A program made the translations under genes and the position numbers. Shown here one piece after another: positions 4,388 to 60,239 of a stretch of DNA of 64,000 nt; within the stretch, counting starts at the first letter, position 1; each line of letters begins with the position of its first letter. Source of the DNA: Clostridia bacterium (lineage in GTDB: Bacteria; Bacillota; Clostridia; Oscillospirales; CAG-272); assembly GCA_024405755.1 (NCBI GenBank), contig JAKSOD010000004.1, positions 991-64,990 of the forward strand, in the 5' to 3' direction. Below the pieces are notes generated by a model, which worked only from the letters and a program-made list of their open reading frames with translations, searched no databases and was not told where the DNA came from.

Positions 4388-4402
4388 ATATTAAAGCAAA
4401 AA

Positions 4403-4448
4403 GGCTGTTAAAAACCTCGTTCCCGAGGTTTTTAACAGCCAATTTTTT
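4403..4448. terminator. Intrinsic terminator hairpin after typA; member of the conserved GTTAAAAACTCG hairpin family
   Basis: ggctgttaaaaacctcg-ttcc-cgaggtttttaacagcc forms a perfect 17-bp stem and is followed by aattttttat. Confidence 0.8.
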
Positions 4449-24455: not shown

Positions 24456-24493
24456 GGGGGTGTAAAAACTCGGGAACGAGTTTTTTCACCCCC
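24456..24493. terminator. Bidirectional terminator (conserved hairpin family) between the NUDIX gene and the convergent dapA
   Basis: gggggtgtaaaaactcg-ggaa-cgagttttttcaccccc is followed by gttttt. Confidence 0.75.
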
Positions 24494-33551: not shown

Positions 33552-34985
33552 ATGTCTGTTCCACAGAGTTTCAGAAAAAAATATGCCCTTGACGGGGAAG
33601 TTTATCAGAAAAATGATGTTGACGCGGCACTGACTGCGCTTTATGCCATGTCCACAAAACTATACACCGAGAATACTGATCTGCACCGCGAACTTGACGA
33701 AATGAAACAGAACGCGGAGGAGAACAAGGAGATATCCGAAGTTTCAAAGACAGTGAATGAACTCTGTGACATGGTGGAGGAACTGATCGGAAGCGTGAAA
33801 GATCTTCGGAGTGAATACTCCGTTCTTCCTAAGCGGATCGACGAGCTTGAAATGAAGATCGACGATCTGACAGACACTGTTGTTGCACGATCTGACATTG
33901 ACGACATCGGTGAATATGCCGGTATGGACGACGTGCTTGCGGAAATGCGTCTTATCGAGACGGATTCTGAGGATGAAGCCGAGGCGGAGATTTTCGATGA
34001 GCCGACTGATGACGGTGAAATTGAAGTTGAAGTCTACGAGATAACGGAAGAATCCGGAATTGAAGAAGAAATCCCAGCCGAGGAAGAAACCGCAGCTGAG
34101 GAAGAAATCGCAGCCGAGGAAGAAATCCCAGCCGAGGAAGAAATCGCAGCCGAGGAAGAAATTGCGGCCGAAGAAGAAATTGCAGCCGAGGAAGAAATCG
34201 CAGCCGAGGAAGAAATCCCAGCCGAGGAAGAAATCGCAGCCGAGGAAGAAATTGCGGCTGAGGAAGAAACCGCAGCTGAGGAAGAAACCGAAATTGAGGA
34301 AGAGTCTGAGATTGCGGAAGAAACCGAAGTTGCCGAACGTATCGAAGAATCTGCAATTGAAACAGAACTGAAAAAAGATGACAACACGGATTTTATTATC
34401 GCGGAACTTCAACGGGCATTCGGATCGGGATTTGCCGACGAGATAATTGATGCCGAAGATAATAAAACGGAAACAGAGCCCGAACCGGAAAACGATCCCC
34501 AACCGGAAGACGAAGAAACTGCAGAAGCCGGAACAGAGCCTGAAACGGAAACTTCTACGGAGGAAGTTCAGGGGCAATTGGATAACGCCGTCGGAAAAGA
34601 AGAATACATAGAGGATACTCCGGCGTCCTTCAGCGAAGATGACGAAGCACAACGGTTGAAAAAAGATCTTCTCCGCAGCTTTGAGATTTTAAGTGATTCC
34701 GGCAATGAAGAAAAAAAAGATCCGGAAGATGAGCCCGCCGCTAAAATTTCCGACGATAATGTGAGCCGTATGCTCGCAGCACTTTATTCCAAACCCATAG
34801 CACCTGCGGTCAAAAATGAAGCCGTCGGTACTGAGCCCGCCGATCCGGATACTGCCGGGAGCGGTACGGAAGAATCCGCACCTGCCGTAAGTGAATCCGC
34901 TGAGACATCCAAAACAGAAAAGACATCAGTCAGCGATATGAGAAGTTCTCTTGACGCTATCCGTCGCAGACTCGGTAAGAAATAA
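33552..34985 (+). CDS. divIVA: DivIVA-domain protein with a long acidic repetitive region
   Basis: It occupies the conserved position between yggT and ileS. The N-terminus FRKKYALDGEVYQKNDVDAAL..., followed by a coiled-coil, resembles the DivIVA lipid-binding domain. The rest is strongly acidic low complexity. Confidence 0.65.
   Translation: MSVPQSFRKKYALDGEVYQKNDVDAALTALYAMSTKLYTENTDLHRELDEMKQNAEENKEISEVSKTVNELCDMVEELIGSVKDLRSEYSVLPKRIDELEMKIDDLTDTVVARSDIDDIGEYAGMDDVLAEMRLIETDSEDEAEAEIFDEPTDDGEIEVEVYEITEESGIEEEIPAEEETAAEEEIAAEEEIPAEEEIAAEEEIAAEEEIAAEEEIAAEEEIPAEEEIAAEEEIAAEEETAAEEETEIEEESEIAEETEVAERIEESAIETELKKDDNTDFIIAELQRAFGSGFADEIIDAEDNKTETEPEPENDPQPEDEETAEAGTEPETETSTEEVQGQLDNAVGKEEYIEDTPASFSEDDEAQRLKKDLLRSFEILSDSGNEEKKDPEDEPAAKISDDNVSRMLAALYSKPIAPAVKNEAVGTEPADPDTAGSGTEESAPAVSESAETSKTEKTSVSDMRSSLDAIRRRLGKK
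34064..34300 (+). repeat. In-frame 18-bp tandem repeat (about 12-13 units) encoding (A/P)AEEE(I/T)
   Basis: gccgaggaagaaatcgca and its variants (atccca, attgcg, accgca) can be read directly. It also shows a higher-order duplication. Confidence 0.9.
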
Positions 34986-35000
34986 ATCAGGAGTTTAATT

Positions 35001-37832
35001 ATGTCAAAAGATTACACAAGCACACTTAACCTGCCGAACACAAGTTTTGCCATGCGGGCAAATCTTCCCCAGAGAGAGCCTGAAATGCTTAAATACTGGG
35101 AAGATATCGATCTTTATCATAAGATGCTCGACGCGGCAGAAGGAAAGCCTCAGTTTATACTTCACGACGGCCCTCCTTTCTCCAACGGCGACATTCATAT
35201 GGGACACGCCCTCAACAAGATTTTAAAGGATATCATAAATAAATCCAAGGCTATGACCGGTTATCGCGTACCTTATGTACCCGGATGGGACAACCACGGT
35301 ATGCCTATCGAGAGTGCCATTATCAAAAAGAACAAACTTAATCGGAAGAATATGTCAATTTCAGAGTTCCGCGATGCCTGTCACAAGTTTGCTCAGGACT
35401 TTATTGACAGGCAGAGAACGGAATTCAAACGTCTTGGAATTACCGCTGATTGGGATCACCCTTATGCCACCATGCATCCTGCTTTTGAGGCACGCGAGGT
35501 CCGTGTTTTCGGGGAGATGTTCAAGAAGGGGTATATATACAAAGGACTCAAACCCGTTTATTGGTGCCCTCACGACGAGACCGCTCTTGCTGAGGCTGAA
35601 ATCGAATATTCCGATATCAAGTGCACCTCTATCTACGTGAAATTTGCCGTAAATGCCGACAACGAAAAGGTTAAGGAAAAACTTACCCCCGTCTGCGACC
35701 TCGGCAGAACTTATTTCATCATCTGGACCACCACCACGTGGACTCTTCCCGGAAACCTTGCGATCGCTCTTCATCCGGACGACGAATACTCCGTGCTGAA
35801 AGCATCTGACGGAAATTATTATATTGTTGCTTCCGCTCTTGCCGCAAAGACCATGGCAGCCGGAGGGGTTGAAAGCTTCGAGACAGTCATGACTGCCCCC
35901 GGACGCGAATTCGAGTATATGGCGGCGCGTCATCCTTTCCTTGACCGTGACAGCCTTATCGTCAATGCCGACTACGTCACTATGGACAGCGGTACCGGAT
36001 GCGTTCATACCGCCCCCGGTTTCGGTGCAGACGACTATCTTACCGGCAGAAGATACAATATGAACATCATAGTTCCGGTTGATGACCGCGGTTATCAGAC
36101 TGCTGACGCTGGGAAATATGCCGGTTTGTATTATGAAAAATCCAATGATATCATTCTTGCGGATATGAAGGAAAGCGGAGCTCTGTTTGCTTCCGAGAGT
36201 ATCGTTCACTCTTATCCTCATTGCTGGAGATGCAAGAATCCCATCATTTTCCGTGCCACTCCCCAGTGGTTCTGTTCGGTAGATGCCTTCAAGGAAGATG
36301 CCGTAAAGGCATGTGAGAATGTGACATGGCAGCCTGCATGGGGCGGAGAGCGCATTGTTCAGATGGTTCGTGAACGCGCAGACTGGTGCATTTCACGTCA
36401 GCGTCATTGGGGACTTCCCATTCCGGTTTTCTACTGCTCGGACTGCGGAAAACCCATTTGTAACGATTATACCATTGACCGTGTGTCGAAGGTCTTCGGC
36501 GAAAAGGGATCAAACGCATGGTTTGATATGGAGCCTTCCGGGATCCTCGGCGAGGATTATGTCTGCCCCTTCTGCGGAGGCAAGCATTTTACCCGTGAGA
36601 CCAATACACTCGACGGTTGGTTTGACTCCGGATCCACGCATTTTGCCGTTATTGAAAACGGCGGATACGATCCCGCATGGCTCAAAGACATTTCATGGCC
36701 TGCCGATCTTTATCTCGAAGGTGCAGACCAATACCGCGGCTGGTTCCAGTCTTCTCTGCTGACTGCCGTTGGAGCCAAGGGAGAGGGAGCACCGTTCAAG
36801 ACTGTTCTGACTCACGGTTGGACCGTTGACGGCGAGGGAAAGGCTATGCACAAATCCCTCGGCAACTCCATTGCTCCCGACGACATCATCAAGAAATACG
36901 GTGCGGATCTCGTTCGCCTTTGGGTGGCATCGAGTGATTACAGCGTTGACGTCCGATGCTCCGACAATATTTTCAAGCAGCTTTCCGAGACATACCGCAA
37001 GATCCGCAATACTGCCCGTATCATTATGGCTAACCTCGGAGATTTCGATCCCGATAAAGATGCCGTACCTGTGGAAAAAATGACTGAGATCGACCGTTGG
37101 GCTTTGTCACGCCTCAATGCTCTCATAAAGACAGTCCGCGGAGCGTACGATTCCTATCAGTTCCATATCGTTTATCACGCGATCAATAACTTCTGCACCG
37201 TTGATATGTCAAAACTTTATATTGATATCACCAAGGACAGAGTATATGTTGAAAAGGCGGATTCTCCCGCCCGCCGTTCTGCGCAGTCTGCCCTGTATCT
37301 CATCATCAATGCAATGACAAGACTCGTGTCTCCGCTGCTTGCATTCACCGGTGAGGAGATCTGGCAGGCAATGCCGCACGCTGCCGCCGATAACAAAATC
37401 AGCGTATTTCTCAACCCGATGCCCGATCCCGAGGCTGAATATGAGTTTGACGGTGTAGCGAAGTGGGAAGATCTGTTTGAACTCCGTGATGATGTTATGA
37501 AGGCACTCGAACTTGCCCGCGCCGAAAAACTTATCGGTAAGTCTCTTGATGCCAAAGTAACCGTATATACCGAAGATGCGGATACTCTTGCTCTGTTCGG
37601 CAAATTCACCGAAAGCGAACTTGCCGCTGTGTTTATTACAAGCGGAGCACATATAGTGAACGGCAAGGCTCCCGAGGGGGCGTACGTTCCCGAAGACGGG
37701 CGTCCTATCGGAGTCACGGTCGAGGGTGCCGACGGTCACCGCTGCGACCGCTGCTGGTGCTATTCCACCGATGGAGTGGAGAGCGAGGACGGTTTTATCT
37801 GCTCACGCTGCCACAATATCGTCGGTGACTGA
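35001..37832 (+). CDS. ileS: Isoleucine-tRNA ligase
   Basis: PPFSNGDIHMGHALNK (HIGH), KMHKSLGN (KMSKS) and a C-terminal zinc-finger cysteine cluster. Length is 943 aa. Confidence 0.97.
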   Translation: MSKDYTSTLNLPNTSFAMRANLPQREPEMLKYWEDIDLYHKMLDAAEGKPQFILHDGPPFSNGDIHMGHALNKILKDIINKSKAMTGYRVPYVPGWDNHGMPIESAIIKKNKLNRKNMSISEFRDACHKFAQDFIDRQRTEFKRLGITADWDHPYATMHPAFEAREVRVFGEMFKKGYIYKGLKPVYWCPHDETALAEAEIEYSDIKCTSIYVKFAVNADNEKVKEKLTPVCDLGRTYFIIWTTTTWTLPGNLAIALHPDDEYSVLKASDGNYYIVASALAAKTMAAGGVESFETVMTAPGREFEYMAARHPFLDRDSLIVNADYVTMDSGTGCVHTAPGFGADDYLTGRRYNMNIIVPVDDRGYQTADAGKYAGLYYEKSNDIILADMKESGALFASESIVHSYPHCWRCKNPIIFRATPQWFCSVDAFKEDAVKACENVTWQPAWGGERIVQMVRERADWCISRQRHWGLPIPVFYCSDCGKPICNDYTIDRVSKVFGEKGSNAWFDMEPSGILGEDYVCPFCGGKHFTRETNTLDGWFDSGSTHFAVIENGGYDPAWLKDISWPADLYLEGADQYRGWFQSSLLTAVGAKGEGAPFKTVLTHGWTVDGEGKAMHKSLGNSIAPDDIIKKYGADLVRLWVASSDYSVDVRCSDNIFKQLSETYRKIRNTARIIMANLGDFDPDKDAVPVEKMTEIDRWALSRLNALIKTVRGAYDSYQFHIVYHAINNFCTVDMSKLYIDITKDRVYVEKADSPARRSAQSALYLIINAMTRLVSPLLAFTGEEIWQAMPHAAADNKISVFLNPMPDPEAEYEFDGVAKWEDLFELRDDVMKALELARAEKLIGKSLDAKVTVYTEDADTLALFGKFTESELAAVFITSGAHIVNGKAPEGAYVPEDGRPIGVTVEGADGHRCDRCWCYSTDGVESEDGFICSRCHNIVGD

Positions 37833-37843
37833 GATAATTTGTC

Positions 37844-38023
37844 TTAAGGCAACACCGCACAATTCACGGCTGACGCCTTGACTGCGCATATGCTTGCATC
37901 TTTTTCGTCATACTTCACAAAATTTCGTTGAAATAGAGAAACTATTCCTTCCTCATTTTGTATCGTCTGACGAAAAATCTGACGGCGCATCTGCACCGCC
38001 AGAATTGTGCGGTATTGCCTTAA
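37844..38023 (+). mobile_element. MITE-like palindromic element A, copy 1 (180 bp)
   Basis: The 22-bp terminal inverted repeats are ttaaggcaacaccgcacaattc and gaattgtgcggtattgccttaa, with 1 mismatch. By eye, one base differs from the arms of the copy at 47454-47797 (plus the central insertion-site bases). It has no coding capacity. Confidence 0.75.
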
Positions 38024-38034
38024 TATTTTACTGC

Positions 38035-38237
38035 GGGACTGTTAAAAAAGTCAATACATTTTTACAGTCCCTCAAAAGCAGTGGTCAGGAGCCACTGCTT
38101 TGGGCGCGACATTGGCGTTTTTGCCTTGAAACAAGGATGGATTTTACTCTTTTTTTAGGGCAAAACGGCGGTGTTCTGCCGCCGAGCCAAATGTCGGCGG
38201 GGTGTTAAAAACTCGATAACGAGTTTTTAACACCCCC
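38035..38237 (+). repeat. Multi-hairpin repeat element B (about 200 bp), forward copy
   Basis: It holds four or five nested or serial hairpins and ends in the conserved terminator hairpin ggggtgttaaaaactcg-ataa-cgagtttttaacacccc. Its reverse complement recurs at 52645-52847. Confidence 0.8.
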
Positions 38238-40733: not shown

Positions 40734-40740
40734 GAGCAAA

Positions 40741-40780
40741 GGTGGTGTAAAAAGCTCGGGTACAAGTTTTTTACACCACC
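40741..40780. terminator. Conserved-family hairpin (imperfect copy) at the 3' end of the convergent DUF4364 gene
   Basis: The sequence is ggtggtgtaaaaagctcgggtacaagttttttacaccacc. It lies 5 nt from the minus-strand stop at 40786-40788. Confidence 0.6.
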
Positions 40781-40785
40781 TTCTT

Positions 40786-45505: not shown

Positions 45506-45793
45506 ATGAACATCAAACCCTTGGCAGACAGAGTTGTCATCAAACTCGTCGAAGCAGAGGAGAAGACCGAGAGCGGCATCATCCTTACCGCGAAGGCTCA
45601 GGAAAAACCCCAGATCGCCGAAGTAGTCGCAGTTGGCCCCGGAAAAGCCAACGACGACGGAGTCCGTACTCCCGTTGAAGTCAAAGTCGGCGATAAGATC
45701 ATTGCCGCAAAATACGCCGGAACCGAAGTCAAGATTGACGGCGTTGAATATACCATCATCTCCGAGAAAGACGTTCTCGCTATCATTAAATAA
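45506..45793 (+). CDS. groES: Co-chaperonin GroES
   Basis: MNIKPLADRVVIK......T.SGI.L...A.EKPQ.AEVVAVGPG. Length is 95 aa. Confidence 0.97.
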   Translation: MNIKPLADRVVIKLVEAEEKTESGIILTAKAQEKPQIAEVVAVGPGKANDDGVRTPVEVKVGDKIIAAKYAGTEVKIDGVEYTIISEKDVLAIIK

Positions 45794-45808: not shown

Positions 45809-47452
<1,644 letters not shown>

Positions 47453-47453
47453 T

Positions 47454-47797
47454 TTAAGGCAACACCGCACAATTCACGGCTGACGCCTTGACTGCGCATA
47501 TGCTTGCATCTTTTCCGTCATACTTCACAAAATTTCGTTGAAATAGATTAGGGAACCTCTAAATATTCATCGCGGACGGGATCGCGGTGCTTTATTCCGT
47601 CATACTTCACAAAAATCCTTCGTGGTGGGGCAACAACACGTGCGGATTTTTGTTTCGTCTGACGAAAAAATCCCTCGCGCCCCATCTCGCACTGAATTTT
47701 TAGAGGTTCCCTTAACTATTCCTTCCTCATTTTGTATCGTCTGACGAAAAATCTGACGGCGCATCTGCACCGCCAGAATTGTGCGGTATTGCCTTAA
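47454..47797 (+). mobile_element. MITE-like element A, copy 2, interrupted by nested element C
   Basis: It has the same 22-bp terminal inverted repeats as copy 1. By eye the left arm differs from copy 1 at one base and the right arm at none. It starts 2 nt after the groEL stop. Confidence 0.8.
47548..47714 (+). mobile_element. Nested palindromic element C (167 bp) inserted in the centre of element A
   Basis: The terminal inverted repeats are ttagggaacctctaaatattca and tgaatttttagaggttccctta, with 2 mismatches. It carries its own TTCCGTCATACTTCACAAAA...CGTCTGACGAAAAAA core. The junctions fit a TA duplication when compared with the uninterrupted copy. Confidence 0.7.
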
Positions 47798-47814
47798 ACC
47801 TGCAAATATAATTA

Positions 47815-47846
47815 TGGGACCGGATCACGCGAGTGATCCGGTCCCA
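47815..47846. terminator. Bidirectional terminator between the groEL locus and the convergent epimerase gene
   Basis: tgggaccggatcac-gcga-gtgatccggtccca forms a 14-bp perfect stem. Confidence 0.75.
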
Positions 47847-47874
47847 TATCATATTACAGTATTACAGTCTCATA

Positions 47875-52644: not shown

Positions 52645-52847
52645 GGGGTGTTAAAAAACTCGTTATCGAGTTTTTTAACACCCCGTCGACATTTGGCTCG
52701 GCGGCTGAACACCGCCGTTTTGCCCTAATAAAAGAGTAAAATCCATCCTCGTTTCAAGGCAAAAACGCCAATGTCGCGTCAAAAGCAGCGGCTCCTGACC
52801 ACTGCTTTTGAGTGGCTGTAAAAAAGTATTGACTTTTTTACAGCCAC
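52645..52847 (-). repeat. Multi-hairpin repeat element B, inverted copy
   Basis: By eye its reverse complement aligns along the full length of 38035-38237 with roughly a dozen differences. Two of these are compensatory pairs in the outer hairpin. Confidence 0.8.
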
Positions 52848-52869
52848 TTGCTGTTATTCTGAAGTTTTT

Positions 52870-60036: not shown

Positions 60037-60121
60037 TGGTGGGGGATGGTGGATTCGGACCACCGAAGTCAGTGACAACAGATTTACAGTCTGCCCCCTT
60101 TGGCCGCTCGGGAAATCCCCC
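60037..60121 (-). tRNA. tRNA-Tyr (anticodon GTA), class II with a long variable arm and encoded CCA
   Basis: The reverse complement GGGGGATTTCCCGAGCGGCCAAAGGGGGCAGACTGTAAATCTGTTGTCACTGACTTCGGTGGTCCGAATCCACCATCCCCCACCA is nearly colinear with E. coli tRNA-Tyr. The T-loop reads TCCGAAT rather than TTCGAAT. Confidence 0.9.
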
Positions 60122-60164
60122 ATATTCTATTGAGTCCGCAACCCTCTGTCGGTCTGCGGACTCA

Positions 60165-60239
60165 TGGAGCTGGTGAACGGAGTCGAACCATCAACCTGCT
60201 GATTACAAATCAGCTGCTCTGCCATTGAGCCACACCAGC
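60165..60239 (-). tRNA. tRNA-Thr (anticodon TGT), encoded CCA
   Basis: The reverse complement GCTGGTGTGGCTCAATGGCAGAGCAGCTGATTTGTAATCAGCAGGTTGATGGTTCGACTCCGTTCACCAGCTCCA folds as a canonical cloverleaf. Confidence 0.92.

Follow-up and report, generated by a model that had tools for sequence, protein, structure and literature searches.

The window analyzed here is a 64,000-nucleotide (nt) stretch of Clostridia bacterium DNA (assembly GCA_024405755.1, contig JAKSOD010000004.1, positions 991 to 64,990 of the forward strand). It contains two copies of a short palindromic repeat, element A, one behind ileS (A1) and one behind groEL (A2), and one copy of a related repeat, element C. All three are in the same orientation, which is referred to as forward below. 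The complete C, 161 base pairs (bp) in length, is nested within the central loop of A2, which itself lies directly 3′ of groEL. The genes and features of the two sites are as follows.

35001–37832, forward strand: ileS, encoding a class I tRNA synthetase (Pfam tRNA-synt_1 and Anticodon_1).
37844–37847: TTAA, left target duplication of A1, assigned from the sequence and the family-wide 4-nt duplication.
37848–38019, forward strand: A1, a 172-bp A-type element (full-length nhmmer match, 126.6 bits), with terminal repeats GGCAACACCGCACAATTC and GAATTGTGCGGTATTGCC, left core at 37903–37922, right core TCGTCTGACGAAAAA at 37963–37977, and central loop AATAG-AGAAA-CTATT.
38020–38023: TTAA, right target duplication of A1.
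45506–45793: groES (Pfam Cpn10).
45815–47452, forward strand: groEL (Pfam Cpn60_TCP1).
47454–47457: TTAA, left target duplication of A2 (this and its right counterpart were read directly from the letters).
47458–47550, forward strand: left half of A2 through the loop bases ATTA, with left core at 47513–47532 and one substitution relative to A1.
47551–47711, forward strand: C, a complete 161-bp C-type element, GGG...CCC, oriented as A2 (full-length nhmmer match, 111.4 bits), with terminal repeats GGGAACCTCTAAATATTCA and TGAATTTTTAGAGGTTCCC, left core at 47595–47614, and right core at 47655–47669.
47712–47714: TTA, direct repeat of 47548–47550, the duplication made by C.
47715–47793, forward strand: right half of A2, with right core at 47737–47751.
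47794–47797: TTAA, right target duplication of A2.
47813–47848: perfect 16-bp hairpin, the native terminator region common to the convergent groEL and aldose-epimerase genes.

At the ileS site, the TTAA duplication begins 11 nt after the stop codon and the element proper 15 nt after it. At the groEL site, the TGA codon ends at 47452 and is followed by one T and then by the TTAA duplication of A2. The A2 and C composite is located between the groEL stop and the hairpin at 47813–47848, and it is probably transcribed within the groEL 3′ untranslated region (UTR).

The 22-mer TTAAGGCAACACCGCACAATTC at the ends of A occurs four times in the window (37844 and 47454 on the forward strand, 38002 and 47776 on the reverse strand), with 0 occurrences expected from shuffled sequences. 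The ends of C were found only at 47548 (forward) and 47693 (reverse). The core TTYCGTCATACTTCACAAAA occurs three times, at 37903, 47513, and 47595, and the last of these lies within C, which has its own core as the initial annotation of this DNA had stated. The boundaries of the mobile unit are GG...CC; the outer TTAA or TTA is the target duplication and lies outside the inverted repeats. The terminal inverted repeats are 18–19 nt in length, and helix 1 of the alignment consists of 17 pairs, with 92% of the cells paired. The initial annotation had correctly placed an element with inverted ends at the center of A2, but its limits (47548–47714, 167 bp, with 22-bp ends) were too wide; the true unit is 47551–47711 (161 bp). 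The A and C elements (161–172 bp) are noncoding, with short accidental open frames that have no protein-family content, and there is no transposase gene.

In the alignment, a single insert at the center of A2 parts the left and right A blocks. The left blocks of A1 and A2 (99 nt) have one difference inside the element. The right blocks, as delimited by the repeat finder, are identical at 84 of 84 positions (47714–47797 and 37940–38023), including one loop base and the TTAA duplication. The near identity of the host copies, with one substitution outside the loop, was therefore confirmed. The total length of A2 corresponds to the 172 bp of A1 plus 161 bp plus 3 nt (the 336-bp form). Both parts of the composite have the standard solo length of their own types (162 or 172 bp for A, 161 bp for C), which bears out the claim that C is nested in A2 as a complete nonautonomous element.

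The right junction of C reads CCC-TTAACTATT, not CCC-TAACTATT. When GGG...CCC is removed, 19 nt are left at the center of A2 versus 16 in A1, so that 3 nt (TTA) have been duplicated; the TA duplication initially proposed for this junction was off by one base. Removal of C together with one TTA gives the loop AATAG-ATTAA-CTATT, which is equal in length to that of A1 and contains TTAA. In a joined-flank search, A1 was recovered as the empty site of C (97.6% identity over 165 nt). The center of A tolerates extra DNA, and each insertion recreates the TTAA target. Other A-type copies carry unrelated extra DNA of 112, 27, and 20 bp in the central loop (L165 455–738 and L168 1498–1782; L081, L035, and L022; L064; L numbers denote the fetched loci).

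Relatives of A and C were collected by several searches. The exact 17-nt core, searched in one genome per species, was found in at least 110 genomic stretches, of which about 95 are in Oscillospirales and about 15 are chance matches in other phyla. The hosts listed include Acutalibacteraceae, Ruminococcus, Faecousia, Clostridium sp. CAG:448, Eubacterium sp. CAG:180, Ruminiclostridium, and Intestinibacillus. Many of the copies are located at contig ends, as expected of repeats. This first sample is biased by the use of the exact core. BLAST detected further copies on replicons of Subdoligranulum variabile and on "phage" contigs from human feces, and the 18-nt A-type terminus was found in 73 IMG/VR stretches, some of which are chance matches. 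Both A and C thus have further copies in many genomes, and solo copies of C, which the initial annotation had suggested looking for, occur in other genomes with their own duplications. The family consists of two related subfamilies with different terminal repeats, as had been proposed: the A-type terminus is GGCAAYACCGCRCAATTC, with modal lengths of 162 and 172 bp, and the C-type terminus is GG(G/T)(A/C)ACCTCTAAAAATTCA, with a modal length of 161 bp. The accompanying idea of a shared core with different arms holds for the clade defined by the exact core, but not for the Subdoligranulum and IMG/VR copies, in which the A-type termini and the 172-bp length are kept and the cores are different, for example, TTTTCCGGCAACTGTCACAAAAAT paired with TTTTTGTTTAACCTGCCAAAAAATC. 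The two sides of the core co-vary; the T-A pair of CCGTCA/TGACG is replaced by G-C in CCGGCA/TGCC. A literature search found no published description of these repeats, and this is apparently a family of MITEs (transposable elements of the miniature inverted-repeat kind) of gut Oscillospirales without an existing name or description.

Some individual copies are unusual. In the A-type copy of L053, the core is duplicated and a 14-mer of the left arm is present three times. In L055 (184–215), a C-type remnant of 24 bp (GGGAACCTCTAAAAATTAGTTCCC) adjoins an A copy, and a 28-bp A-type remnant in L107 (3135–3170) has TTAA on both flanks; these minimal relics could have arisen by internal deletion or by excision. 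One reading frame on the reverse strand of A is open, and spurious "proteins" of 52–80 residues have been predicted from the copies by gene callers (P0064–P0073).

The target-site duplication was analyzed across the family using a profile search (nhmmer on the alignment labeled A2, with a margin between strands of 26 bits or more), which gave 82 nonredundant full-length copies among the fetched loci. Identical 4-nt flanks were found in 62 of the 82 copies, versus 2–5 of 82 for other lengths or shifted registers. Fifteen different tetranucleotides are represented in the 62: TTAA (33 copies), TAAA (8), TTTA (4), CTAA (4), ATAA (2), CTTT (2), and the single cases TATA, TTCA, GAAA, AAAA, TTTT, TTAT, CTTA, TTGA, and TTAG. 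An empty site was also identified by the joined-flank search. The filled pair L135 and L144 reads ...TTTT-CTTT-[172-bp A-type]-CTTT-GTTTTC..., and the empty counterpart L180, whose flanks are 99.4% identical, reads ...TTTT-CTTT-GTTTTC... with a single CTTT. The family transposes by a 4-nt staggered cut. Tandem A-A copies have one TTAA in common (L030 and L044). With inverted repeats, a duplication of fixed length, small size, dispersal, and an empty site, the A/C family has all the structural hallmarks of MITEs. Its target preference is for A+T-rich tetranucleotides, which very often hold a TAA stop codon. The preference for hairpin centers behind strongly expressed genes that had been suggested is not borne out, there being one case of C in A.

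A candidate for the mobilizing enzyme came from a scan of IMG/VR with the C-type terminus. It gave four matches, one of which is the exact left end of an insertion sequence (IS): at this locus (L264), TTAA-GGGCACCTCTAAAAATTCA... is followed by the start of a transposase gene about 130 nt further in. The C-type consensus GGGAACCTCTAAAAATTCA is identical to this terminus at 18 of 19 positions, and the two ends of the C copy in the window at 17/19 and 18/19. The full locus (L268; Nitrosomonas, CP011451.1) has the flank TTAA, and its transposase gene is split by an IS630-family element. The C-terminal 285 residues of the transposase scored 232.7 bits on NCBIfam NF033581 "IS5 family transposase" (cutoff, 140) and matched Pfam DUF772 and DDE_Tnp_1. 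An identical IS5-family terminus is flanked by TATA in L271, and a variant, GAGCATCTCTAAAAATTGA, by TTAA in L272. The interiors of A and C are unrelated to the IS5 ends examined. A subgroup of IS5 makes 4-nt A+T-rich duplications. Based on the match of the C-type terminus and the 4-nt A+T-rich duplication, IS5 is the best candidate. A and C are thus likely to be nonautonomous elements mobilized in trans, with an IS5-type enzyme as the best explanation, and the transposase acting in this host is most likely a member of the IS5 family. A transposase with a matching terminus, which the initial annotation had suggested looking for, was thus found for the C-type; its family is IS5 and not IS630, and none was found in the window or in the Oscillospirales loci.

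The link to IS5 is indirect, and several observations weigh against this reading. The A-type terminus matches the IS5-family terminus at only 12 of 19 positions. The matching IS5 elements are from Nitrosomonas-like Proteobacteria, and their right ends are decayed or lost, which makes their own duplications unreadable; the Nitrosomonas-type IS5 N-terminal fragments (P0081–P0083) are all truncated relics without a right end. The window, about 0.7 Mb of Oscillospirales DNA, 150 kb of Subdoligranulum DNA, and 0.56 Mb of viral loci yielded no autonomous IS with A- or C-type termini. When the IS5 transposase was used as a tblastn query, neither the window nor any of the Oscillospirales loci gave a match. 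Terminal repeats were also paired by fuzzy matching across all loci, which gave no long pairs ("pairs" of 995, 2960, and 3499 bp, with 3–4 mismatches, are due to chance). Clustering of all open reading frames (ORFs) against each other for multicopy proteins gave no autonomous partner, and self-BLAST of the 150 kb of Subdoligranulum gave only a G+C-rich repetitive region and no partner. The length of the duplication does not single out IS5 by itself, since the IS1380 family also makes a 4-bp target duplication and that of IS701 is exactly 4 bp (PMC2266710). At the nested site, two neighboring bases distinguish the rebuilt loop of A2 (ATTAA) from that of A1 (AGAAA), and ATTAA was not seen as the loop of any A copy. 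The junction of C is also imperfect: its left side reads ATTA and its right side TTAA, and it fits either a 3-nt duplication or a TTAA duplication with one A lost at the left junction. The 5-nt loop varies freely among copies (AGAAA in A1; GTCTA in L262, which is from another sample and has the same type of A center), and an ATTAA variant is therefore plausible. A metagenome scan with the window-specific A center AAATTTCGTTGAAATAGA gave 67 matches, all of them chance matches in unrelated DNA, and yielded no groEL site with A and without C.

Two observations concern the proteobacterial loci themselves. An approximately 135-bp MITE is present at 676–808 of L271, a contig from a proteobacterial metagenome; its termini are C-type (GAGCACCTCTAAAAATCCA ... 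TGAATTTTTAGAGGCGCCC), and TGAA flanks it on either side. An IS5 relic with this terminus lies on the same contig. The region 4868–8460 of L268 is an IS-in-IS nest within a prophage-like region, in which an adjacent IS110-like gene is split by a second copy of the same IS630 element.

A1 and C each fold as one long imperfect hairpin, with −66.9 kcal/mol (z-score, −8.4) and −71.0 kcal/mol (z-score, −7.6), respectively. The consensus hairpin derived from 16 diverse copies has 35 pairs, and 92% of its cells are paired, compared with 35–43% when the partners are slid. Compensatory changes were found in 21 of the 35 pairs, versus 2–9 in the slid controls and 9.8 ± 1.9 in shuffles, and the compensated pairs include the interior helices and not only the terminal repeats. 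Palindromy of the entire element is usual among bacterial MITEs. With 12 G-U cells and 16 A-C cells, G-U is no commoner, and the data therefore do not show that selection acts on the RNA of one strand. In Rfam 15, the elements matched no family, either at the gathering threshold or with E relaxed to ≤ 10; such weak hits as there were all fell on the neighboring terminator hairpin. A ribozyme was considered on account of a hammerhead-like CUGANGA in the right core, yet Rfam gave no match. No convincing match to a σ70 promoter was found in the core. The shape also suggested attC/integron sites or IS110 bridge-RNA-like elements, with which the terminal repeats and variable duplications do not fit.

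The copies are not oriented at random relative to genes. Many coincide with a stop codon, the TAA being contained in the duplicated TTAA, TAAA, or ATAA. Where the stop codon lies in the duplication, 20 copies are forward, behind 20 different genes, and 6 are reverse, three of them behind dubious ORFs. Within 40 nt of the 3′ end of a gene, 28 copies are forward and 8 reverse (p = 0.001). The right-hand neighbors have no strand bias (35 versus 33), which argues against an effect of replication direction. An asymmetry of terminator function was rejected as the cause, since terminator-like hairpins are equally frequent on the two strands (32 versus 29 of 81 copies). The orientation bias is explained by neither terminator-like motifs nor replication direction.

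This bias is the main reason why a functional alternative was kept under consideration. In this alternative, the element, besides being mobile, would be a domesticated or functional RNA module, a strand-specific structured RNA in the 3′ UTR of the upstream gene that acts, for example, as a stabilizer, a processing site, or a protein-binding site. Such a role would explain the conserved internal loops along with the forward excess, to which A1, A2, and C all conform, and it is in line with the well-paired cells, the compensated pairs that extend into the interior helices, and the position of A2 upstream of the native terminator hairpin. It is opposed by the lack of any Rfam match even at E ≤ 10, by the G-U count, which does not indicate selection on the forward-strand RNA, by the equal distribution of terminator-like hairpins on both strands, and by the wholesale replacement of the cores in sister clades; fully palindromic MITEs are, moreover, common. 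We regard a functional module as unlikely. The more specific form of the idea, in which the interior is a strand-specific 3′-UTR module that is spread by IS5, kept in one orientation behind stop codons, and modulates mRNA 3′-end formation or stability, is somewhat more doubtful still. If true, the module would act on groEL, ileS, and others in many gut Oscillospirales. The orientation bias is in any case a testable hint that some copies affect expression.

The nested structure could also be read in the opposite direction, with A2 and its 167-bp center as the original form and A1 as an internal-deletion derivative, so that no nested transposition took place. Deletion derivatives do exist in the family (106–118 bp, even 28 bp; L014, L017, L109, and L107), and the two-base difference between the loops of A1 and A2 might be the scar of a deletion or excision. 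Against this, the insert is a C-type element in full, having termini and cores of its own and the modal length of 161 bp, and 12 solo C-type copies with their own 4-nt duplications were found in other genomes. The 172-bp A-type element is the norm in more than 10 genera, and no other A copy carries C; L262 has the same A center with an uninterrupted 5-nt loop, AATAG-GTCTA-CTATT. An ancestral long form is thus very improbable.

The initial annotation had assigned the elements to the IS630/Tc1-mariner type of MITEs, which insert at and duplicate TA. The bases at the junction of C do include TA, an IS630-family element without any relation to these termini is present in one Nitrosomonas locus, and MITEs of this type are known from bacteria, RUP and Correia among them (PMC10969869). 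With the boundaries set at GG...CC, however, flanks fitting a 2-nt duplication were found in 2 of 63 copies and identical 4-nt flanks in 50 of 63; duplications of 2, 3, or 5 nt account for 2–3 copies each and shifted registers for 0–2. The duplications CTTT, GAAA, and TTTT contain no TA, the length difference at the C junction is 3 nt and not 2, and the C-type terminal repeat matches IS5-family termini. The assignment would need an IS630-family element with GGGAACCTC... or GGCAACACC... termini, and we consider it even less credible than an ancestral long form. A relic of a single-strand (HUH/Y1) transposon that targets hairpins, of the palindrome-associated REP/RAYT or IS200/IS605 kind, would account for the whole-element palindrome, the insertion in a hairpin loop, and the orientation bias relative to genes, but these systems have neither terminal inverted repeats nor a target duplication, A and C have both, and there is no replication-direction signal among the right-hand neighbors (35 versus 33), which leaves it with a negligible probability.

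Here, we propose a sequence of events based on mobilization of A and C by an IS5-type enzyme. A DDE transposase, most likely of the IS5 family, would move A and C in trans, making 4-nt staggered cuts at A+T-rich tetranucleotides with a preference for TTAA. One A copy would have landed in a TTAA one base after the groEL stop and another 11 nt after the ileS stop. Later, C would have inserted into the 5-nt loop (ATTAA) of the groEL-side A hairpin, duplicating TTA(A). The near identity of A1 and A2 argues for recent copying, and the order and recency of the insertions given here are what the nesting and this similarity suggest.

Related genomes provide indirect evidence on presence and absence at the sites of the window. 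In one strain (L111; epimerase 98% identical), the contig runs from the epimerase gene through the shared terminator hairpin to the right end of A, where it stops; A is at the same groEL-side position in this strain. In a related species (L112; epimerase 64% identical and GroEL C terminus about 95%), an ordinary terminator is all that follows the groEL stop, and no element is present; this indicates that the element is an acquisition and not part of the groEL gene. Filled and empty A sites in relatives, which the initial annotation had proposed to look for, are thus represented by these two loci, but a groEL site with A and without C was not obtained in the metagenome scan. The route through identical proteins (groEL, groES, and lspA) led to contigs that end before the element.

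The A/C family resembles the IS5-derived or IS5-mobilized MITEs of bacteria and their eukaryotic counterparts, the Tourist MITEs of PIF/Harbinger, in being short and noncoding, with terminal inverted repeats that start with GG and a short A+T-rich duplication. The duplication of Tourist MITEs is TAA/TTA, and IS5 itself targets YTAR; the TTAA preference of the A/C family appears to be looser than that. It differs from the IS5-family MITEs in that no autonomous partner was found in this host lineage and in its diverged A-type terminus (12/19). IS701 and IS1380 share the exact 4-bp duplication, but no such transposase was linked to the A or C termini, whereas IS5-family ones were, and the termini GGCAAC... 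and GGGAAC... do not conform to the terminal consensus of IS701, ---YACT-Y--YR (PMC2266710).

The pneumococcal RUP, BOX, and SPRITE repeats are likewise small, structured, intergenic repeats of a Gram-positive host that occur in 3′ UTRs or regulatory regions, some of them terminator-like. They have no sequence similarity to A or C; BOX has a modular build and is not a plain inverted-repeat element, and RUP is associated with IS630-Spn1 and a TA duplication. Pneumococcal elements of this kind insert into one another (PMC10969869). The nested insertion in the window is genuine evidence of successive activity and is mechanistically ordinary. Fully palindromic dispersed elements of 100–170 bp are also represented by Correia (Neisseria), ERIC/YPAL (Enterobacteria), bcr1 (Bacillus cereus group), and EFAR (Enterococcus), which are commonly near stop codons and are often cotranscribed with flanking genes as long RNA hairpins. 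Their duplications, TA for Correia and TTTAT for bcr1, are unlike the 4 nt of A and C, and these elements differ from A and C in termini and host range; to our knowledge, none is recorded for Oscillospirales.

The family is abundant in Oscillospirales from the guts of humans and animals (Ruminococcus, Acutalibacteraceae, Faecousia, Subdoligranulum, and others) and on contigs that are classified as viral. Its copies put a stable hairpin of about 170–340 nt into the 3′ UTRs of core genes. As repeats, they break metagenome assemblies, with many copies at contig ends, and they spawn spurious small ORFs in protein databases. With the true GG...CC boundaries and the 4-nt, TTAA-preferring duplication known, the copies are easy to annotate and usable as strain markers.

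A second hairpin family was observed in the window. It consists of near-identical perfect hairpins of the form GGGGTGTTAAAAA(A)CTCG-loop-CGAG(T)TTTTTAACACCCC, with a G+C clamp outside the A-run and T-run, at 38199–38236 and 52645–52684 and also at 40739–40782, 4398–4445, 52811–52848, 24456–24472, and 38040–38075. Its 17-mer has five matches at up to 3 mismatches, versus 0.15 expected, and the sites are intergenic, for example, directly before lspA. These hairpins could be bidirectional terminators or another small palindromic repeat. Upstream of ileS, at 34065–34332, there is an array of about 12–15 tandem copies of an 18-nt unit (consensus, GAAGAAATCGCAGCCGAG), whose translation would give acidic hexapeptide repeats. 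The reverse strand carries two tRNA genes at 60040–60239 (Rfam RF00005; 67.9 and 47.9 bits).

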